NCBI GenBank assembly: GCA_022508665.1
Contig: JAFLUT010000002.1
Coordinates: 7,606-71,605 of the forward strand
Length of the DNA stretch: 64,000 nt
From: Prevotellaceae bacterium
GTDB lineage: Bacteria > Bacteroidota > Bacteroidia > Bacteroidales > Bacteroidaceae
Reading direction: 5' to 3'
Within the stretch, counting starts at the first letter, position 1. Every line of letters begins with the position of its first letter. Shown in pieces: positions 12,355-47,338 of the stretch. The notes under the pieces were generated by a model. It worked only from the letters and a program-made list of their open reading frames with translations. It did no database searches and had not been told where the DNA came from. A program made the translations under genes and the position numbers.

Positions 12355-15300
12355 TTATCTGTCAACAAATACTTTCTTTCCGTCAATGATGTAGATGCCC
12401 GGAGCCGTGATGCTGGCAACCTTCACGCCTTGCAGCGTATATATGCCCTTAGGGTACTGCGGTGTGTCGGTAGCGATGTCCGTGATAGCGTCAGGTTCAT
12501 CTTCCTCAATCTTGAACGGCACGGTGCATGTGAGGACGAAGTCGTCAGCCTTGTACCAGCGCCCTTCCTTCACACCGATAGTGAGCGACCCTGTTTCAGC
12601 ACCCTCGGGAGCCTCTACCAAAATGCTGTCGATGACTGCTTCGGTCAGATAGAGGTGTCCGAAAGCGTGGCCGTTGACAGTGACTGTTGAGTCTCCTGCA
12701 AACATGGTGACGGTGGAGTTCTCATCTGTGCCAAGTTTGGCTGTGAGGCGATAGTAGCCCGGAGTGAGGCCTTCCACTGTCTGTGAGATGCTTACAGAAC
12801 TTGAATCGGCTGCGGCTATGAGGCTCATGAATACATATTTGCCGTCCAAACCGACTGCACGGTAATTGTTGGCTTGCGTGCCGTTATATACCTTGCCGAC
12901 AGATGAGTAGCCCTCTTTCGTGCCGAGCGTCCAGCCCTTGGTAGAATTTGATTCAAACGACGGATTTTCGATGTTGCCTGTGAAGTCTATAGCAGTCCTG
13001 TCTGATTTAAGAACCTTGTTAATGTATTCCTCAGTGTCGGTCTGCACTTCCCTTACGTAGTCGAGCAAGAAGGAATAATCCACGTCTTCACGGGTGGAGA
13101 ACATCTTCTCCGCTTCTTTCACCTTTGCCAAAAGGGCTTTGTTGGCAGATGCGGAGGCAAGATTTTTGTACTTGTTGTAAGCCTGATACGCCGCCTCTAT
13201 GTTTGCTGCCAAAGTAGCGTATGAGGGGTCGAACATGATGTCAGACTCTGCACGGAATTTCTTTGTAAGGTCTGCGGCATTCCAATATCCACGCAGCGCC
13301 TCGACGTCAGAGCCTTCTTTGACTGGCTCGAAATACTGCATGCTGTCATCGTTGAGCATCTGGCTGCCAGCAGGGGTTACGGTTGCTGTAAACGTACCCA
13401 CGAAAGCAGGGTCAGCATTCTCCACCGGCGCAGCGAGAACTTTCACGTTTGTTCCGCTCAGCGTAGCATTGCCCGTGTATGAAAGCATGACAAGATATGG
13501 CTTTCCTGCTTCAAGCGTCGTCACATCGTTAGTCTTGTTGGATATGCCAAGAGTGGTGTGAGAAGTGATTTCTCGAGCGATGATGCCTTCTGGAACAGTT
13601 GCGGCGAATGGCACAGTGAGAATGCACCATTTTCCCGGCACTGCATTCACGGCTATCTCCGCTTTGGCTGCCTCGAATGCTGCGGAAGGAGCGAAATTGT
13701 ATCCCGGAGTGAGCGAGAGGCTTTCGCACTTGCCAGCCTTGACGACATTCACGCCCGATGCCTCGCTGTCGTCAGCCACATAGTAGAGGGCGTTGGGATT
13801 GACTTCTTGAGATACATTCTTGACACCGACACATTGTGTCAAGTCATATTCAGTCGCTGTCTTATAGGATGACTTCTTGGCAAATGTGGCAGAGTTAAAC
13901 ATGGTAGCATCGAAATGCCCTTTGAGGGTAAGCCTATCATTTTCAAAACTAACCACCTCCATGTCGCTCTCCTTCATCATGAAGCGCACAACGGTGTCGG
14001 CTGCCTCGGCAAAGTTGATGACATCGTCAGACGACTGCACTGTTCTGACGAGTTTTCCGATGTAGTACTTTCCGACTTCGAATGGGCAAGAAGTAGTGCT
14101 GGTGATGTTGAACTGAGCCACGCCTGTCTCATTCTCCGCAGCCGTCAGCGAGGCAGTCTTGCTGCCTACTGTCTCCCAATCAGATGTCGTTTCGTTATAT
14201 TTGTAGAAATCCATTCTCAGCGTGCCGGCATAAGAATAGTTTGCCGCATTGGCAATGGCTGCGTAGGCATTTGACTTATTGTTGTAGATGATCTGGAATT
14301 TCTCGTCATTCAATGTCTCTGTGTCAGACGATGCGTCTGTATAAAGGTTTACAAGACGCAGGTCTTTTTCAGTGTATTCTGGCTCAACGCTTGCCGTAGC
14401 CAACACATTGAGGTTGGCGTCGGTAACAAAGAAGTACCATGTCGCAGTGCTGTTAGGCTTGGCTGTGAAAGTCATTGTGCCTGTTTTATCCCTGCCTATC
14501 ACAGTCTCTGTGTCGGACGACTTAGCGGAACTCAAAGAGGCTGGCTTCAAACCCGATGTATTAGCAAAGAAATAGACGTTGGAGAGCGGCAAAGTGCCAT
14601 TGTTTGCAAACGTCACTGTGAACTCGTTGGTCACATCGCTATAAACCGTTTTAGGCAATTGGATTGTGGCATCAATCTTTGAGATTTTCGGAGAGATACC
14701 GTAGACGCAGCCCTGAAATGAAGCGTTAAATCCCCAGCCCTGCACGCCGTCCTCTACGGAGAAGTAGCCGTTGTATCCGCTGCCCCAACCGAAGTTGATG
14801 TGGAACAAGCCGGTGCTTGCCTGATAGCCGTCGCACACCACGGCATGACCGCCGCCATCACTGTTAGTACCGCAGTACAACACGGGGCGACCTTGGATGA
14901 GTTCGTTGTATAGCAGGTTTGCCCATGCCGTTTCAGAATAGCCGCTGTTTTTATACACGCAAGTGCCACCATTAAGCCCGAACTGTTCGGAGAACACTTG
15001 GCAACAGTCGCCTATCTGCCCCGATGTAGACCTGTCGTTTGCACCTACTCCGTATGTGAGCCATGCGCTCATGCCCACTGTTGCCACAAGCGTAGCCACC
15101 GCCTCCTTATATTCCGCTGGCTCGCTGCCGTAAGAGTCCGACATGAGGTCGAACTTGATAGGCGTACCTTTCTTTATCTGATATTCCTCTTTTACGGGAG
15201 CGTTGCCATAGCCGTATGTCGGCGTGTCATAACCTACCGTGTTGTTCGCCTCACGACGCCAGTAGTAAACAATCTGAGCCGCTGCCGTAGCCACGCATCC

Positions 15301-15822
15301 CGTCATGGCACGTCCAAGACTTGTATTGTTCATATATGGACATTTGTCGTTGTATGGGCTTTCTTGATGCCACAGAGAAGTAAGCAGATAAGGCACATCC
15401 ACCTTCGTGTCCGTAACAGCCTTTGCCTTGACCTCCGCACTGTTGTCTCGCGGAGTATTCACTCCGTTTTTCTGGGCATACTCGATAATGTCTGCCCTGT
15501 ATTGCAGCCATGAGCGGAAGTTGTCAGGCACATTGTTCTCATCGTAATCGCCCTCCTCCGTGTAGCCGAGAATGGCAGGCATACAGTCGTCACCGCTCAC
15601 AATCACAAAGCCTTGGTTCTCGCCTCGGCTGATGATGTAATAAGGTGCATTCTCAGCAGCAGCCGCACTGCGTGGCTTCGCTTCAGACACAAGGCTCATC
15701 GTGTGTCCGGGAACAAGGTATTCCTGCGCAAGTTGAAGAGCCTTCGCCTTCGTGATGGGGTCGGCAGACGCGGACAAGCCCATCAGCACAAAAGCACATA
15801 AAGTAAAAAATTTCTTAATCAT
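12355..15822 (-). CDS. C10-family (streptopain-like) cysteine peptidase with T9SS C-terminal sorting domain
   Basis: Signal peptide. Catalytic contexts TGCVATAAAQIVYYW (Cys) and GGGHAVVCDGY (His). A long beta-rich middle region is followed by the C-terminal GIYTLQGVKVASITAPGIYIIDGKKVFVDR, typical of T9SS CTDs. Confidence 0.85.
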   Translation of the reverse strand: MIKKFFTLCAFVLMGLSASADPITKAKALQLAQEYLVPGHTMSLVSEAKPRSAAAAENAPYYIISRGENQGFVIVSGDDCMPAILGYTEEGDYDENNVPDNFRSWLQYRADIIEYAQKNGVNTPRDNSAEVKAKAVTDTKVDVPYLLTSLWHQESPYNDKCPYMNNTSLGRAMTGCVATAAAQIVYYWRREANNTVGYDTPTYGYGNAPVKEEYQIKKGTPIKFDLMSDSYGSEPAEYKEAVATLVATVGMSAWLTYGVGANDRSTSGQIGDCCQVFSEQFGLNGGTCVYKNSGYSETAWANLLYNELIQGRPVLYCGTNSDGGGHAVVCDGYQASTGLFHINFGWGSGYNGYFSVEDGVQGWGFNASFQGCVYGISPKISKIDATIQLPKTVYSDVTNEFTVTFANNGTLPLSNVYFFANTSGLKPASLSSAKSSDTETVIGRDKTGTMTFTAKPNSTATWYFFVTDANLNVLATASVEPEYTEKDLRLVNLYTDASSDTETLNDEKFQIIYNNKSNAYAAIANAANYSYAGTLRMDFYKYNETTSDWETVGSKTASLTAAENETGVAQFNITSTTSCPFEVGKYYIGKLVRTVQSSDDVINFAEAADTVVRFMMKESDMEVVSFENDRLTLKGHFDATMFNSATFAKKSSYKTATEYDLTQCVGVKNVSQEVNPNALYYVADDSEASGVNVVKAGKCESLSLTPGYNFAPSAAFEAAKAEIAVNAVPGKWCILTVPFAATVPEGIIAREITSHTTLGISNKTNDVTTLEAGKPYLVMLSYTGNATLSGTNVKVLAAPVENADPAFVGTFTATVTPAGSQMLNDDSMQYFEPVKEGSDVEALRGYWNAADLTKKFRAESDIMFDPSYATLAANIEAAYQAYNKYKNLASASANKALLAKVKEAEKMFSTREDVDYSFLLDYVREVQTDTEEYINKVLKSDRTAIDFTGNIENPSFESNSTKGWTLGTKEGYSSVGKVYNGTQANNYRAVGLDGKYVFMSLIAAADSSSVSISQTVEGLTPGYYRLTAKLGTDENSTVTMFAGDSTVTVNGHAFGHLYLTEAVIDSILVEAPEGAETGSLTIGVKEGRWYKADDFVLTCTVPFKIEEDEPDAITDIATDTPQYPKGIYTLQGVKVASITAPGIYIIDGKKVFVDR

Positions 15823-15883: not shown

Positions 15884-15940
15884 CGTTTTTTCCCCGACAC
15901 TACAAAACATTTCAATACATTTTTTCCACACTTGCAAAAA

Positions 15941-16131
15941 AGTGGAGGGGTGGAACATCTCCGTTGCAGCGTTGCAGTTGTTGCAGTTAAAAAATGCAGT
16001 GCAACAAAAGTCAAAGAGAATTTTTATATTATATAATTATATAATATAAATCTATTTATAGGTATTATTATGATGTTTGAGGCGTTGCAAACAACTGCAA
16101 CAACTGCAACGCTGCAACGCCACCCCCACCG
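15941..16131. repeat. palindromic intergenic element A: 27-bp perfect inverted repeat around a 104-bp AT-rich core
   Basis: CGTTGCAGCGTTGCAGTTGTTGCAGTT at 15962-15988 has its exact reverse complement at 16093-16119. The flanking boxes GTGGAGGGGTGG and CCACCCCCACC are also complementary. Confidence 0.9.
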
Positions 16132-16159: not shown

Positions 16160-16274
16160 GGGGACTCTTCAACGCAAATGCGGCAGACTGCATAACGTAA
16201 TTATGGTAGACCGCATAACGTAATTATGGCAGACCGTGCAACGCAATTGTACACAGCCCGCCATGCAACAAAAC
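16160..16274. repeat. direct-repeat array A, 5 units phased at 23 bp
   Basis: The units are GGGGACTCTTCAACGCAAATGCG, GCAGACTGCATAACGTAATTATG, GTAGACCGCATAACGTAATTATG, GCAGACCGTGCAACGCAATTGTA and CACAGCCCGCCATGCAACAAAAC. Confidence 0.85.
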
Positions 16275-22530: not shown

Positions 22531-22538
22531 CAAAGATA
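22531..22538 (-). promoter_or_regulatory. -7 box TATCTTTG for oadGAB
   Basis: Reverse-strand TAnnTTTG match about 42 nt upstream of the oadG ATG. Confidence 0.5.
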
Positions 22539-22625
22539 CGGAGAAAATCTCACATATCAAATAATATGCAGTACGTTTTTTGTAAATAGGTGGAAAAAGA
22601 TGATTTTGGTAAGGAAGGGGTTTCG

Positions 22626-23042
22626 CTATTTGTTATCTGTTATCTGTTATTTGTTGCATTTGTTACCAACTCACAAATGCGTGCATACGCTGAAAACACT
22701 GGGCTTGCGTGTGTTTTTGGGTATCTTTCGGCAACAGATAACAGATAACAAATAGAATTTTTCGATGTGGAGGGATGCGGCGATTTTGGGGAGGAGAAAA
22801 AGACGAAAAAGGAGGGTAAAAAAATAAGTTTGTATTATATTATAATAATTAATTATTATAATATAATACAAAAATTTGTTGTCTTTTATTTTCTGCGTCA
22901 AATTGCAAAAACCTATTTGTTATCTGTTATCTGTTGCCAACCGCATACAAAATTCGCCGCAAGCCCAGTGTTTTCAGCGTATGCGCCACATTCCGCATCG
23001 GTAACAAATACATTTGTTGCCAGTTTGTTGCAGGTGATTTGC
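22626..23042. repeat. composite palindromic intergenic element B (nested perfect inverted repeats, GTTATCT microsatellite arms)
   Basis: The 23-mer CTATTTGTTATCTGTTATCTGTT occurs at 22626-22648 and 22913-22935, and inverted at 22733-22755. There is a 26-bp perfect IR (22730-22755 with 22913-22938) and a 27-bp perfect IR (22683-22709 with 22958-22984). Both IR pairs are centred near 22834. Confidence 0.9.
22829..22872. repeat. 44-nt perfect A/T-only palindrome
   Basis: TTTGTATTATATTATAATAATTAATTATTATAATATAATACAAA is self-complementary. Confidence 0.95.
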
Positions 23043-23075
23043 AGGGCGCGTTTTGCACGAAAGCACAGCAAACAT

Positions 23076-23190
23076 ACCTTGCTGCGACAAACAGCGGAGC
23101 GATGAAGCGATAAACGGCGTGGCGATGTTACGATGAACGGTGCAGCGGTATGGCGATGAACGGCAATTACGGCATGCGGTTCACGGCAAA
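23076..23190. repeat. direct-repeat array B, 5 units phased at 23 bp
   Basis: The cores CGACAAACAG, CGATAAACGG, CGATGAACGG, CGATGAACGG and CGGTTCACGG start at 23085, 23108, 23131, 23154 and 23177. Confidence 0.85.
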
Positions 23191-23235: not shown

Positions 23236-23243
23236 TATCTTTG
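23236..23243 (+). promoter_or_regulatory. -7 box TATCTTTG for the vapBC-like pair
   Basis: TAnnTTTG match 24 nt upstream of the 23267 ATG. Confidence 0.5.
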
Positions 23244-25401: not shown

Positions 25402-25470
25402 ACGTGCATTTGTATATAAGAGGTAACAAATAACAGATAACAAATGCAACAAATAACAGATAACAAACAA
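25399..25470. repeat. third (inverted) copy of the element-B arm
   Basis: The reverse complement reads TTTGTTATCTGTTATTTGTTGCATTTGTTATCTGTTATTTGTTACC...ACAAATGCACG. It shares a 30-nt identical core, GTTATCTGTTATTTGTTGCATTTGTTA, with 22632-22668. Confidence 0.85.
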
Positions 25471-25496
25471 CTCTGACTAATCAACAACAAACAGAT

Positions 25497-27199: not shown

Positions 27200-27214
27200 T
27201 CGGTGATTAAGGAT

Positions 27215-27306
27215 AGCCGTGTATCGAACAATCGGAAAGCGGTGTGTCGAAACAGCGATAAGCCGTGTGTCGATGTTGCGATGAGCGGTGTTTCGTAATG
27301 CGGCAG
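27215..27306. repeat. direct-repeat array F, 4 units phased at 23 bp
   Basis: The units are AGCCGTGTATCGAACAATCGGAA, AGCGGTGTGTCGAAACAGCGATA, AGCCGTGTGTCGATGTTGCGATG and AGCGGTGTTTCGTAATGCGGCAG. Confidence 0.9.
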
Positions 27307-27354: not shown

Positions 27355-28353
27355 ATGGTTAGTTACAAAGAACTGGGTCTCGTGAACACTCGCGAGATGT
27401 TCAAAAGAGCAGTGGCTGGCGGCTATGCTATCCCTGCTTTTAACTTCAACACAATGGAGCAGATGCAGGCAATCGTGCAGGCTGCTGTTGAGACAAAGTC
27501 TCCTGTCATCATGCAGGTGTCAAAGGGCGCTCGCAACTATGCCAACGGCACTATCCTCCGCAACCTCGCTAAGGGCGCTGTGGAGTATGCTAAGGAACTC
27601 GGCTGCGAAAATCCTGAAATCGTTCTCCACCTCGACCACGGAGACACTTTCGAACTCTGCAAGGACTGCATCGACAACGGTTTCTCATCAGTGATGATTG
27701 ACGGCTCACACCTCCCATACGAGGAGAACGTCGCTTTGGCAAAGAAGGTTGTTGAGTATGCTCATCAGTTCGACGTAACTGTTGAGGCTGAACTTGGCGT
27801 ACTCGCAGGTGTTGAAGACGAAGTTTCTGCTGCTGAGTCTACTTACACTAAGCCAGAAGAGGTTGTTGACTTCGCTACTCGCACAGGCTGCGACTCTCTC
27901 GCAATCTCTATCGGTACTTCTCACGGCGCTCACAAGTTCACTCCTGAGCAGTGTACACTCGTGAACGGCGTACTCGTTCCTCCACCACTCGCATTCGACG
28001 TGTTGGCAGAAATCGAGAAGCAACTCCCAGGCTTCCCAATCGTTCTCCACGGCTCATCTTCAGTGCCAATGGACGAGGTTAACACTATCAACAAGTACGG
28101 TGGCAAACTCGAGGCTGCTATCGGCATCCCAGAGGAGCAACTCCGCAAGGCTGCTAAGTCTGCTGTTTGCAAGATTAACATCGACTCTGACTCTCGCCTT
28201 GCAATGACTGCTGCTATCCGTCAGCACCTCGCTGAGCATCCGGGTGACTTCGACCCACGTCAGTATCTCAAGCCTGCACGTGAGAACATGAAGAAGATGT
28301 ACATCCACAAGATTGTAAACGTTCTCGGTTCTGATGGCAAACTCGCTAAGTAA
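27355..28353 (+). CDS. fbaA: class II fructose-bisphosphate aldolase
   Basis: MVSYKELGLVNTREMFKRA..., with the LHLDHG and GTSHGA contexts. I use the ATG at 27355, because the 27265 extension is translated repeat DNA. Confidence 0.93.
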   Translation: MVSYKELGLVNTREMFKRAVAGGYAIPAFNFNTMEQMQAIVQAAVETKSPVIMQVSKGARNYANGTILRNLAKGAVEYAKELGCENPEIVLHLDHGDTFELCKDCIDNGFSSVMIDGSHLPYEENVALAKKVVEYAHQFDVTVEAELGVLAGVEDEVSAAESTYTKPEEVVDFATRTGCDSLAISIGTSHGAHKFTPEQCTLVNGVLVPPPLAFDVLAEIEKQLPGFPIVLHGSSSVPMDEVNTINKYGGKLEAAIGIPEEQLRKAAKSAVCKINIDSDSRLAMTAAIRQHLAEHPGDFDPRQYLKPARENMKKMYIHKIVNVLGSDGKLAK

Positions 28354-28430
28354 CAATCAGATAGAGTAACACACAGACAGAGTGCAACTAATGGCTTAGG
28401 CCGTTTAGTTGCGCTCTTTTTATCTTCCGC

Positions 28431-29744
28431 ATGTTCCGTCGCATCACGCTTTCCATACTCTTTCCCCTCTGCTCACTGTCTGCGCTCAACGCTCAGACAG
28501 CGCCGCTGGATTCTGCCTATCTGGCAGAGATAGACTCTATCATACAAGAGTATGAAGCACGCAGACGCATGGAGCAAGTGGAGCAGGTCGTCAAGCAGCA
28601 TGAGCAACTGCGACTGAAAAAAGAAATGTCATTCACTCCGCAAGGAGCATTGCCTTTGGCTCGAGGGTTGATACTCACATGGAGCGACCGCAAATTCGTC
28701 AATCATTCAGCCATATTCGAAAAGAAATCCGACCTCTACACATGGGCGGATTATGGCATTGGCAGCATGCCCTTAGCAGCCAACTGGATAATGAAAGCGG
28801 CAGGAGTGAAAAGCCGCTCAAAACTTGAACGCATGCTTACAGCCAACGTCATGGCATTCGGCATATCGGTAGGCATGACCGAAGGATTGAAACACGCCGT
28901 CAAGGAGACCCGTCCCGACAACACCGACACACGCTCATTCCCGTCAGGACACACCAGTTTCGCCTTCGTCTCCGCCAGCATTCTCAGCCGCGAATACGGC
29001 TATCTCTCACCGTGGATAACAGTAGGCGGATACATAGCCGCCACAGGCACGCAATTCATGCGCATGCGCCACAACCGCCACTGGATGAACGACCTCTACA
29101 TGGGTGCAGGCATCGGCATGGTAAGCACCAATCTCGCATATTTCCTTACCGACCGCATTTGGGGCGAAAAGGCAATCAACACTCCCGAAGTGCGGCGCAA
29201 AGACGTCATGCGACTGATGCGTTTTAACGCCCAGCCAACCGGCATATCCTTCGTTTCTGGCACAGAAATCGGCAACCGCAACATTCATTTCGACAACGCC
29301 ACCGTCAAGGCAGGTGCAGCCATATCCGCAGGCTTCGACCTCTCTTTCTACACCTCCTCCTACTTCGCTGTCGAACTTATGACTCGCATAGCGAATACGC
29401 AGATGAAAGTGTACGGCACCGACCACACCTTCTCGGGCGACCAACTCAGCATCTACCACTTTGACCTCTCCGCCAAACTCTCTACGCCCGTTGACCTAAG
29501 CCAACGCCTCGGCGCACGCATTTTTGCCGGCACCCGCACACTGAGCGGAGCCAACTTCACCGACGGAGTGACCACCTACTCAATCCCCAACGAAACAAAA
29601 TTTGAACTCGGACTTGGCATCAACTACTATTGCCTCGACACCGACAACTACGCATGGGGTCTCACATGCGACTACTTCCACACTTTTTCCCACTGCATGC
29701 CCAATCGATACAGCATCAGTTCCGTGTGGAAAATCATATTCTAA
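28431..29744 (+). CDS. PAP2-family phosphatase with ~190-aa C-terminal beta-rich extension
   Basis: Signal peptide. PAP2 motifs KETRPDN, PSGHTS and RMRHNRHWMNDL. The C-terminal region shows alternating hydrophobicity and ends ...SSVWKIIF with a terminal aromatic residue. Confidence 0.8.
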   Translation: MFRRITLSILFPLCSLSALNAQTAPLDSAYLAEIDSIIQEYEARRRMEQVEQVVKQHEQLRLKKEMSFTPQGALPLARGLILTWSDRKFVNHSAIFEKKSDLYTWADYGIGSMPLAANWIMKAAGVKSRSKLERMLTANVMAFGISVGMTEGLKHAVKETRPDNTDTRSFPSGHTSFAFVSASILSREYGYLSPWITVGGYIAATGTQFMRMRHNRHWMNDLYMGAGIGMVSTNLAYFLTDRIWGEKAINTPEVRRKDVMRLMRFNAQPTGISFVSGTEIGNRNIHFDNATVKAGAAISAGFDLSFYTSSYFAVELMTRIANTQMKVYGTDHTFSGDQLSIYHFDLSAKLSTPVDLSQRLGARIFAGTRTLSGANFTDGVTTYSIPNETKFELGLGINYYCLDTDNYAWGLTCDYFHTFSHCMPNRYSISSVWKIIF

Positions 29745-29830
29745 GGCTGTCCATGCCCCTTCCTTTCCAACAACCACACCAATGGCCCACCACCGCCTGT
29801 TGCCCTATTCAGCCGCACGCATCCTTAAAA

Positions 29831-29914
29831 TATAACTTATATTTTATAAAATCAAACTTAAATTTATATAAATATAACCTATATTTTATAAAACATAAGT
29901 TATGTTTTAATAAA
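29831..29914. repeat. AT-rich direct-repeat array P, 4 units of 21 bp (or 2 of 42 bp)
   Basis: The units are TATAACTTATATTTTATAAAA, TCAAACTTAAATTTATATAAA, TATAACCTATATTTTATAAAA and CATAAGTTATGTTTTAATAAA. Unit 1 and the segment 29884-29904 (units 3/4 junction) also form an inverted pair. Confidence 0.85.
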
Positions 29915-29916
29915 AA

Positions 29917-29943
29917 ATACGGCTGAGCATCGCCCAGCCGTAT
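29917..29943 (-). terminator. intrinsic terminator after pepT
   Basis: The reverse strand reads ATACGGCTGGGCG-ATG-CTCAGCCGTAT followed by TTTTTTATT. Confidence 0.7.
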
Positions 29944-29961
29944 AATTAGACATTATTCCTT

Positions 29962-31305
29962 TCATTCATTCCCTACCCTTTCTGCCACAATAGAGCAGAT
30001 GTTGACGACAGTCTTCATCGCCTTTTCAAGACTCTGCACGGGGCAGAACTCGTGAGGTCCATGGAAATTGATGCCGCCAGCGAAGATGTTAGGGCATGGC
30101 AAACCTTTGAACGAAAGTTGCGCCCCGTCTGTACCGCCTCTTATCGCCTTGACCTTCGGCGTCATCCCTGCTCGGGAAATCGCCTCCTTGGCAATGTCTA
30201 TTATGTGCATCATTGGCTCGACCTTCTCCCTCATGTTGTAGTATTGGTCGTTTAGTTCAAGGACAGCGACATCCGTTCCCCACTGCTTTTCGTCAACCGC
30301 CGCATCAGAGGCAAGACACAGGCTCTTTTGCTTGGCGCCTTCCCCACCATACTTCTCATTTATAGCCTCAACAACATGCACCATTTTCAGTTTCCTGCTC
30401 TCGAAAGAAGTACGGTCGTGGTCACGAATGATAAAAGAGAGTTGTGCCTTTTCACAGTTTCCGCAGATGTTGGTCAAATGGAAAAATCCTTCATACCCTT
30501 CAGTCGTTTCGGGAGTTTCGTCAGCAGGGAGCATGCCAACAATTTCCGTTGCGATGCGAGCAGCATTGACCATTTTTCCTTTGGCATATCCGGGATGTAC
30601 AGAGCAGCCGTTTACTGTGATTTTGGCTGATGCAGCATTGAAATTCTCAAACTCTATCTCGCCCACTTCACTGCCGTCCATCGTATATGCAAAGTCGCAG
30701 CCAAACTTCTCAACATCAAAGTGATGCGCCCCCTGCCCTATCTCCTCGTCGGGATTGAAAGCAATGCGTATCTTGCCATGCTTAATCTCCGGATGTTGCT
30801 GCAAATACACCATCGCCTCGACAATTTCAGCAATGCCTGCTTTGTCGTCTGCGCCAAGCAGGGTTGTGCCGTCGGTAACGATGAGGTCTTCGCCTATGTG
30901 GGCGAGCAGTTCGGGAAATTTTGCCGGCGATGTGATGATTGGGGAAGCACTCGCCGTTTCATGTCCTTGGGTAGCGTCAGATTGGCTTTCAGACAGTATG
31001 ATGTCTCCGCCGTCATAATTGCTCACAATCCGTGGCTTCACACCCTTGCCCGATGCGTCGGGACTTGTGTCCATGTGAGCAATAAAGCCAATGGTGGGTA
31101 CTTGCTTGTCGGTGTTGGCTGGGAGGGTGGCATACAGATAGCCCAGTTCGTCGAGTTCCACCTCCTGCAATCCTTCGGCTACAAGTTCGTCTTTCAGATA
31201 TTTTGCGAACACCATTTGCTTGTCAGTGGACGGCGTTGTTCCTGTCTCCTCCGACGACTGCGTGTCGAAAGCGACATATCTTAAAAATCTTTCTACAATA
31301 TCCAT
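29962..31305 (-). CDS. pepT: peptidase T (tripeptide aminopeptidase, M20B)
   Basis: [17 protein letters not shown] and [12 protein letters not shown], with M20 metal-ligand contexts. 447 aa, somewhat long because of an insertion near [17 protein letters not shown]. Confidence 0.92.
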
Positions 31306-47126: not shown

Positions 47127-47338
47127 AAATGAAACAGCGATGACCCTCTGTCGTCATCGCCAACCTTTCTCCTCTCAATCGCACAACCGCACACATCCCC
47201 AAAACGCCACTTTTATGCCTCATAAGTCGCAACCGCCGGCACAGATAATCTGCATTGGCTGACTATTATAATCTGTCACGGCTGACTATTGTAATCGTGA
47301 ACGGCAGGGCATTTCAGCGGTCAGCCGTTGTCTTTTTG
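47127..47338 (+). ncRNA. candidate small RNA (unclassified) containing array N
   Basis: The orphan promoter at 47113-47120 is followed by a 5' hairpin (GCGATGAC/GTCATCGC, 47137-47160). A 3' helix ACGGCTGAC/GTCAGCCGT is then followed by TGTCTTTTT at 47329-47337. No ORF. Confidence 0.25.
47240..47331. repeat. direct-repeat array N, 4 units phased at 23 bp
   Basis: The units are CACAGATAATCTGCATTGGCTGA, CTATTATAATCTGTCACGGCTGA, CTATTGTAATCGTGAACGGCAGG and GCATTTCAGCGGTCAGCCGTTGT. Confidence 0.85.

Follow-up and report, generated by a model that had tools for sequence, protein, structure and literature searches.

A conserved, oriented palindromic module between lepA and a C10 protease gene in Prevotellaceae, with a candidate role upstream of promoters

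The lepA–C10 protease intergenic region

The window, i.e., the whole stretch of 64,000 nt (64 kb) analyzed here, carries lepA and a gene for a C10 protease (1155 aa, with an Inhibitor_I69 domain), and element A lies between the lepA stop codon (16303, minus strand) and the protease start (15822, minus strand). The −7 promoter box of the protease gene, TAACTTTG (15883–15876, minus strand), is of the Bacteroidetes type; it is found 79 nt from the arm of the element, which agrees with the distance of about 80 bp upstream of the protease promoter given in an earlier, sequence-only reading of this DNA. The protease promoter region is conserved in contigs L250, L251, L252, and L253 from relatives. 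A tandem array of about three copies of a 23-nt unit (16171–16248) separates the lepA stop from element A; it is kept in L121, L122, and L251, and many members of the family described below are flanked by similar arrays.

Arm 1, CGTTGCAGCGTTGCAGTTGTTGCAGTT (15962–15988, 27 nt), contains three GTTGCAG units, at 15963, 15971, and 15980, spaced by 8 and 9 nt, and is identical in relatives L122 and L251. Arm 2 (16093–16119) is its exact reverse complement, with mirror units at 16095, 16104, and 16112, so that the arms are 100% complementary with 104 nt between them. These coordinates confirm the perfect 27-bp inverted repeat, with three units per arm around an AT-rich 104-bp core, of the sequence-only reading; its statement that the element has no coding potential likewise stands, since the overlapping ORFs are just 41–53 aa long. 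The 27-mer occurs at only two places within the 64 kb and gives zero matches in dinucleotide shuffles. The shuffles, the layout of the units, and the z-score of the fold (below) rule out chance or low complexity as the source of the arms. The GTTGCAG word itself is not over-represented in the window and shows no strand bias there, which rules out a Chi- or DUS-like genome-wide word.

The core consists of three parts. Wing B, on the protease side (15989–16022), carries the family motif TTTTGAC in reverse complement, GTCAAAGAGAAT, and was assigned by the family consensus, the orientation score, and comparison with L122 and L250. The center is a perfect AT-only palindrome of 28 nt, TTTATATTATATAA/TTATATAATATAAA (16023–16050), whose length differs between strains. 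Wing A, on the lepA side (16051–16092), is fast-evolving and non-complementary to wing B; the self-complementarity of the wings in the window, 0.49, is that of shuffled sequences.

Outside the arms, a G-rich box, GTGGAGGGGTGG (15942–15953), is followed by AACATCTC between this box and the left arm, and a C-rich box, CCACCCCCACC (16120–16130), abuts the right arm. The two boxes, described earlier as complementary, do pair in the predicted DNA and RNA folds, forming an outer clamp, and because of this pairing the segment 15935–16135 is predicted to fold as a single long imperfect hairpin (z = −11.8 for DNA and −10.8 for RNA against shuffles; −86.6 kcal/mol, z = −10.8, for the lepA-sense RNA of the element). 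An A6 run (15936–15941, minus strand) becomes U6 in the lepA-sense RNA, directly after the outer clamp. The order in the lepA sense is thus the lepA stop, the 23-nt array (16248–16171), the G-rich clamp half (the reverse complement of 16120–16130), arm, core, arm, the C-rich clamp half (the reverse complement of 15942–15953), U6 (15941–15936), and the protease −7 box. The G/C boxes together with the A/T run have the shape of a terminator clamp enclosing element A, a feature overlooked in the sequence-only reading. About 166 nt lie within the clamp (158 nt of element and 8 nt more), and a terminator scan calls no terminator here.

The same locus was compared in relatives. By its LepA homologues, the window falls among uncultured Prevotellaceae, whose MAGs NCBI lists under Bacteroidaceae. 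In L121 and L122 (LepA 99% identical) the same array and the same arm follow lepA, and both contigs end inside the element; L250 and L253 begin inside it, with the same arm, clamp, and promoter following. The same-species contig L251 is 97–100% identical to the window from lepA through the element and the promoter to the first ~100 nt of the protease gene, with identity falling to 57–85% further inside this gene; the sole change in its element is a 10-nt expansion of the perfect palindrome, from 28 to 38 nt. In L252 (protease 71% identical) the promoter is homologous, and an ordinary hairpin followed by U8 replaces the element; the A6 run of the window is the positional homologue of the T-run behind this canonical terminator hairpin. 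L123 (LepA 96%) has lost the element, and its protease gene is reduced to a 140-nt remnant, while relatives at 95% LepA identity have different genes downstream of lepA. The core has the same orientation in the window, in L251, and in the overlapping L122/L250 contigs, and among the lepA–protease relatives divergence affects the wings and leaves the arms identical. Conservation of the arms, for which the sequence-only reading had proposed to look in relatives that keep the lepA/C10 synteny, was thus found, with identical arms retained at the orthologous site. Because of this retention, the element has, as judged by comparison of contigs, been inherited stably within the lineage, with a single orientation and a place in the loop of a terminator-shaped clamp.

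The family of GTTGCAG modules and its neighbors

As far as can be judged from sequence, element A is one copy of a widespread and apparently undescribed family of intergenic modules of rumen-type Prevotellaceae. A search for the arms elsewhere, also suggested by the earlier reading, yields the same architecture in more than 240 Prevotellaceae genome and metagenome loci. The genome scan used a loose arm pattern against one genome per species, with about two-thirds of the matches listed being unrelated 9-nt-period repeats; amid these unrelated coding repeats, the matches listed include Prevotellaceae/Bacteroidales MAGs (RUG, goat, sheep, red deer) with the same layout. The scan of JGI metagenomes with a two-arm pattern gave at least 120 loci, and the matches listed are all true members except for about four GC-rich false positives. 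Both scans demanded strict arms, hence the sample is biased toward copies that keep them. A single match to the family was found in the IMG/VR viral contigs, so that it is almost absent from phage, and a phage or plasmid feature is ruled out. The literature searched contains no paper with the arm motif or with the promoter motif described below, and on Prevotella MITEs and repeats it yields only P. gingivalis BrickBuilt and generic MITE surveys.

The first half of the family consensus reads tGTTGCAgtGTTGCAGTGTTGCAGTTctc..[wing A]..C.aAAAAtAct-TCTATAT..(AT palindrome), and the second half (AT palindrome)..ATATAGA-.tTaatTTTtgActTT..[wing B]..tTTT.gAAC-TGCAACACTGCAACaCTGCAAC. Among the matches listed, the central perfect palindrome has a median length of 24 nt and reaches 54 nt; the core is 90–129 nt long, with modes at 94 and 108–110 nt. 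No 10.5-nt helical periodicity was found in the core length, which argues against a rigid phased protein loop, and this candidate was rejected. The self-complementarity of the wings in the family (0.54) is no higher than in cross-element controls (0.52; 0.49 in shuffled sequences), which rules out selection on a whole-element hairpin; since the wings are not self-complementary, a full cruciform including the arms would be unfavorable in duplex DNA. At the two variable spacer positions, one arm matches the other at a higher rate than expected (0.76 vs. 0.49 and 0.91 vs. 0.75), and part of this agreement could stem from descent from a few perfect ancestors instead of continuing selection.

With a family HMM (nhmmer), a single copy is detected in the 64 kb of the window, and the roughly 900 kb flanking 120 copies contain no additional full one. 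This density, about one copy per 64 kb, indicates that the module is low-copy per genome (an estimate from the window and the flanks) and that its abundance comes from many carrier lineages. Among the matches listed, crude ORF calls place all but 6 of 125 copies outside long ORFs; by the same crude calls, neighboring genes have a modest bias toward pointing outward, with 28 of 78 copies between divergent genes and 12 of 78 between convergent ones, the latter counting against the role upstream of promoters favored below.

Since the two wings differ, every copy can be oriented. Once oriented, the flanks show 419 similar left–left pairs against 65 left–right pairs in the inverted sense (among the matches listed). 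A "special" promoter, as written on the wing-A flank CAAAGGTA-N-CATTGCGGTTCACGAAT and pointing away from the element, is present on the wing-A side of 40 and on the wing-B side of 3 of the 68 confidently oriented copies among the matches listed, at a median of 67 nt from the arm. In loci with different downstream sequences, homology stops at the −7 box. This is not a generic Prevotella promoter, as it is absent from all 60 TAnnTTTG sites of the window. On the wing-B side, 67 of 125 copies have a generic TAnnTTTG box within 250 nt that points away from the element, the median distance being 79 nt. The same figure is the distance of the protease box in the window.

The gene behind the special promoter is very often one for an HU-HIG histone-like protein, with several divergent subfamilies represented. 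In a profile search (PF18291), 26 of 125 copies among the matches listed have an HU-HIG ORF no more than 900 nt away; all of these ORFs are transcribed away from the element, the 20 confidently oriented cases are all on its wing-A side, and none was found elsewhere in the 970 kb of the fetched loci. When HU-HIG genes were sampled independently of the element, a module was present in every upstream region long enough to judge, five of these loci having GTTGCAG arms. Two other loci, of the L256/L265 type, recognized by eye, have a conserved leader and promoter core with a module of the same layout upstream, its unrelated arms being built of CGTCMCAT units and an AT palindrome standing at the center. 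The window has neither an HU-HIG gene nor the special promoter, and its HU-HIG link is therefore borrowed from other genomes. HU-HIG proteins are a large, Bacteroidetes-specific, rapidly diversifying expansion without conserved operon links or known targets, for which a role in biological conflicts has been proposed (PMC5499826). As far as found in the literature searched, the link between these proteins and the module, which the sequence-only reading missed, is new. Neighbors on the other side of the module are diverse: restriction-modification, Abi, and Fic proteins, surface/secreted proteins, TonB-dependent receptors, and housekeeping genes.

A further version lies in the window itself. The sequence-only reading had pointed to a second module of the same layout at 22531–23190; the layout is present (element B, 22620–23040), with different arm units (GTTATCT); its nested palindrome is of greater complexity, and divergent promoters lie on either side of a perfect AT palindrome of 44 nt. 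In each of the three versions, GTTGCAG, CGTCMCAT, and GTTATCT, the two arms are mutually complementary; hence the arm sequence changes, while complementarity and layout persist. The notion of a reusable module is borne out by the size of the family, by its recurrence upstream of promoters, and by this cousin of the same architecture.

Alternative readings of element A

One alternative, which we regard as unlikely, is that element A is a selfish, non-autonomous palindromic repeat (MITE-, Correia-, or REPIN-like) without a function for the host, which spread by transposition or hitch-hiking and came to lie in the loop of the lepA terminator. Small size, inverted arms at the ends, an intergenic location, and many flanking contexts all speak for such a repeat, and element A sits exactly between the halves of a terminator-shaped GC clamp, where L252 has an ordinary terminator; however, no target-site duplication was found at any offset, abutting direct repeats of 3–9 nt being at chance frequency in 122 copies and the longest substrings shared by the flanks of copies being at the level of cross-element controls. 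Near-identical cores adjoin unrelated transcribed sequences (e.g., L101 and L249 as compared with HU-HIG loci); against this reading, polarity relative to the neighboring promoter is fixed (40 vs. 3), and diverged lineages keep their copies at orthologous sites. In 278 loci, no autonomous element sharing these ends was seen; L005 has an IS4-type transposase gene beside it, with ends that do not match. Genes resembling Y1/HUH transposases stand next to the variant type and to a single GTTGCAG locus, represented by the contigs L203 and L238; by jackhmmer, Y1-like ORFs are next to 2 of 125 GTTGCAG copies, on one side only, and the RAYT-like gene of L256 is bracketed by hairpins of its own, different from the module. 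The rarity of Y1 genes and these separate hairpins rule out a RAYT-mobilized REPIN; the lack of target-site duplications and the low copy number speak against a classical MITE, and in this sense the MITE-like element, offered in the sequence-only reading as one of three roles, is poorly supported.

Correia/NEMIS elements of Neisseria and other MITEs are 100–160 bp long, with terminal inverted repeats of about 26 nt, and are intergenic, often near promoters; REPs are 20–40 nt long and reach hundreds of copies per genome. With the former the module shares terminal inverted arms on a small non-coding element; it differs in having no TA or other target-site duplication, in its low copy number and fixed promoter polarity, and in arms made of tandem 8-mers, for which no cognate IS was found. 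With REPs and REPINs it shares the form of a hairpin-forming intergenic palindrome without target-site duplication, with a few copies beside Y1_Tnp-like genes; unlike in REPIN–RAYT systems, these genes stand beside no more than the two of 125 loci given above, and the RAYT-like gene of L256 has its distinct hairpins. Putative mobile promoters, on which Matus-Garcia et al. wrote in 2012, are reportedly homologous promoter regions found upstream of non-homologous genes. The block of special promoter plus element, 80–95% identical upstream of unrelated transcribed sequences, resembles them; in contrast to them, it is dominated by a structured palindrome and tied to the HU-HIG family, and the copy in the window lacks that promoter. 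The 23-nt arrays recall P. gingivalis MITE239/"BrickBuilt", which has an adjacent minisatellite of 22–23 nt (PMC4596501).

We give little credence to a second alternative, that the module is a substrate of site-specific recombination, either with the core inverted by a dedicated, perhaps global, invertase (an inverton of the Bacteroidales type) or with the arms serving as junction or attachment sites at the edges of variable islands. The perfect inverted arms with concerted variation would suit it, and one clean inversion of the core against both homologous flanks is seen (L135 vs. L165 and L175); yet 25 of 28 orthologous pairs with both flanks homologous share their orientation, the remaining two being ambiguous due to symmetrical flanks, and the window, L251, and the overlapping L122/L250 contigs have one orientation. 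No TAnnTTTG was found by eye on either strand of the family-consensus core or of the window core, the promoters lying outside the arms. The neighbors include classes subject to phase variation (restriction-modification, surface proteins, TonB-dependent receptors, proteases), as judged by eye from translations and a few Pfam scans; a serine recombinase, however, was recognized by eye in just one of 64 neighboring proteins on the wing-B side. A 12.7-kb DpnII/AbiH island of RUG14659 has a full element at one end and an inverted solo arm at the other, and there is no recognizable recombinase in it. Synteny often stops exactly at the outer edge of the arm. Metagenome contigs of four relatives break inside the element, for which the extreme AT palindrome is also an explanation. 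Bacteroidales invertible promoters (Mpi/Tsr "fin" regions, PhaseFinder invertons) come from the same phylum and have inverted repeats of 20–30 bp around a segment of 100–200 bp, with a repeat consensus common to many loci and neighboring gene classes that overlap with those of the module; the module differs from them in having no internal promoter, an orientation almost invariant among the pairs compared, and no regularly associated recombinase among the neighbors. The earlier proposal of a recombinase-flipped segment is weakly supported, with one clean inversion set against the pairs of constant orientation, a core without a promoter, and the lack of a systematic recombinase nearby.

According to a third alternative, the element acts at the RNA level, as the 3′ end of the lepA mRNA, with the ~190-nt hairpin and U6 forming a terminator, a 3′ stabilizer, or an RNase III site. 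Locally this would be plausible: the lepA-sense RNA is predicted to fold strongly, with a GC clamp followed by U6; L252 has its canonical hairpin with U8 at the homologous position, before the homologous promoter; and the terminator scan found no other terminator between lepA and the protease promoter. As an account of the module it is improbable, as T-runs after the arms are rare in the family (~14%) and unrelated to incoming genes, which rules out a family-wide terminator; the 28 of 78 copies between divergent genes would be transcribed from no known promoter; and the stem sequence is conserved between species, unlike that of terminators. An Rfam 15 search of element A returned no match other than a single spurious one to plant MIR841 (32 bits against a gathering score of 200). 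Because the family has no terminator signature while the clamp in the window is terminator-like, an RNA role can hold at this locus without explaining the family, i.e., it is only locally plausible.

Two further candidates can be dismissed briefly. An integron attC site is ruled out because the ends read GTTGCAG ... CTGCAAC on both strands, the wrong order with respect to RYYYAAC ... GTTRRRY, and two degenerate positions fail; oriC is ruled out by the lack of a GC-skew turn within the window and by the multiple and varied contexts of the family. Origin-like or Rep-binding layouts, such as the GAGC repeats of the AAV ITR or the SV40 core origin, place short tandem repeats in hairpin stems or around an AT-rich center. 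By analogy, the tandem units in inverted arms, the AT-rich center, and the site between divergent promoters would resemble them; the module differs in being chromosomal and low-copy, with no Rep/initiator gene or nick-site motif. The module belongs among bacterial interspersed palindromic intergenic elements, and it fails a defining test of each of the Correia-type MITE, the REPIN, and the inverton.

A candidate cis-acting role and its implications

The explanation that we favor, tentatively and with somewhat less than even confidence, is that element A is a solo copy of a cis-acting DNA module of Prevotellaceae, conserved, oriented, and low in copy number, with a structural or regulatory function upstream of promoters. 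Among the three roles named in the sequence-only reading, a cruciform or protein-bound regulatory region appears to fit best, with the restriction that the full cruciform including the arms is, as predicted from the wings, unfavorable. In this architecture, inverted arms made of short arrays of 7–8-nt units bracket an asymmetric AT-rich core centered on a perfect AT palindrome of variable length, and the module would exert its effect as DNA, in the untranscribed stretch that immediately precedes promoters. The AT palindrome with its flanking A/T tracts may provide an apex that melts or bends easily or is prone to form a cruciform, and pairing potential or a two-fold set of binding sites may come from the complementary arms. 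The combined structure could be recognized by an architectural protein, and given how often their genes adjoin the module, the histone-like HU-HIG proteins are the obvious candidates; such recognition would determine how active the adjacent promoter or promoters are, or insulate that activity. In the window, the module lies in the loop of a hairpin with a GC clamp and a U tail at the lepA end, 79 bp upstream of the promoter of the C10 protease gene; given this position, it probably keeps read-through from lepA apart from transcription of the protease gene and modulates the promoter of the latter.

A more specific version, speculative and improbable in full, would make the module the cognate DNA target of HU-HIG proteins, a supercoil- or structure-sensing operator that autoregulates HU-HIG genes, while solo copies would put surface, protease, and defense genes under HU-HIG control. 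The sequence of the arm units (GTTGCAG, CGTCMCAT, GTTATCT) would then co-evolve with the paralogue that reads it, and the AT palindrome would be hypermutable.

If the module were inert, its family would still be a new one among interspersed bacterial palindromes, unusual in having arms built of tandem units. Metagenome assemblies repeatedly break at the element, hence its recognition helps contig joining and promoter annotation. Its presence at HU-HIG promoters offers a first concrete, testable cis-partner for HU-HIG proteins. The module marks promoter regions of variable surface, protease, and defense genes in dominant rumen Prevotellaceae, and it could constitute a shared control point of these genes.

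Element B and other intergenic repeats

Element B, a nested palindrome of ~400 bp (window 22620–23040), has the same layout as element A, the palindrome between lepA and the C10 protease gene, but is built of different arm units: its arms carry three GTTATCT units in place of GTTGCAG (22626–22648, 22733–22755 as the reverse complement, and 22914–22936). The outer repeats of 55 nt show 80% identity, a perfect AT palindrome of 44 nt lies at 22829–22872, and the element is flanked by divergent promoters, a minus-strand one at 22538 and a plus-strand one at 23236. Arms of the GTTATCT type are absent from all of the first 254 loci collected.

Several intergenic regions of the window contain tandem arrays with a 23-nt period, the sequence differing from array to array, and others contain 7-nt repeats similar to GTTATCT/GTTGCAT; these repeat regions are 16171–16248, 23084–23127, 27211–27295, and 47245–47305, and also 25416–25471 and 28349–28383. 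An AT-rich quasi-palindrome of 118 bp with 21-nt repeats (29809–29926) occupies the gap between opposite-strand ORFs, 28431–29744 (plus) and 29962–31305 (minus).

Flanks and neighbors of family members

In other loci, many members of the element A family are flanked by arrays with a period of 8, 23, 28, or 75 nt; some of these are downstream of the "special" promoter, the conserved outward promoter found mainly on the wing-A side of the core, and hence within transcribed leaders. A ~75-nt repeat (AGCGAGAGCAGAG...GCCGAGCGCC...GTCAACGCTGCAAC) often prolongs the palindrome past the arms (flanks of loci L165, L175, L135, L200, L273, and others). At L077/L116 and L273 the flanks are themselves inverted repeats of 50–170 nt, and the wing-B-side flank of the single member L179 has four DnaA-box-like TGTGGACA/TGTCCACA repeats.

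Loci L022 (2829–2993) and L120 (7617–7641) are contiguous on CADCHQ010000004.1 (RUG14659), where a 12.7-kb island coding for a DpnII restriction–modification system, AbiH, and unknown proteins has a full element at one end and a solo arm in inverted orientation at the other; a histone-like HU-HIG gene is on the far side of the full element. In L255–L269 (e.g., L256:100–1230), a Y1_Tnp/RAYT-like gene lies divergent to HU-HIG. The L256 copy of this gene is flanked on both sides by hairpins of its own (GTACACAAAAGGGACGGTTC...), and one of these directly borders the variant palindromic module. In L203 and L238 the GTTGCAG element has as its neighbor another Y1-like gene, very different from the first.

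Assembly breakpoints and protease polymorphism

Metagenome and MAG contigs frequently terminate inside the element, within one of the arms or within the AT center (L121, L122, L250, L253; L007, L012, L077, L097, L116); hence, the element is a recurrent assembly breakpoint.

Comparison of window positions 12355–15822 with the same-species contig L251, the protease-side contigs L250 and L253, and the element-less relative L252 shows that the C10 protease is highly polymorphic. In L123 (LepA 96% identical), all that is left of the protease gene after lepA is 140 nt (L123:6857–6997); the gene has lost its 5′ part, and the promoter and the element are deleted as well. Identity to the same-species contig is 97–100% up to ~15700, falling to 57–85% across the protease gene, and the neighbor downstream of the protease also differs; this drop inside the gene, together with the different neighbor, suggests allele replacement or diversifying selection.
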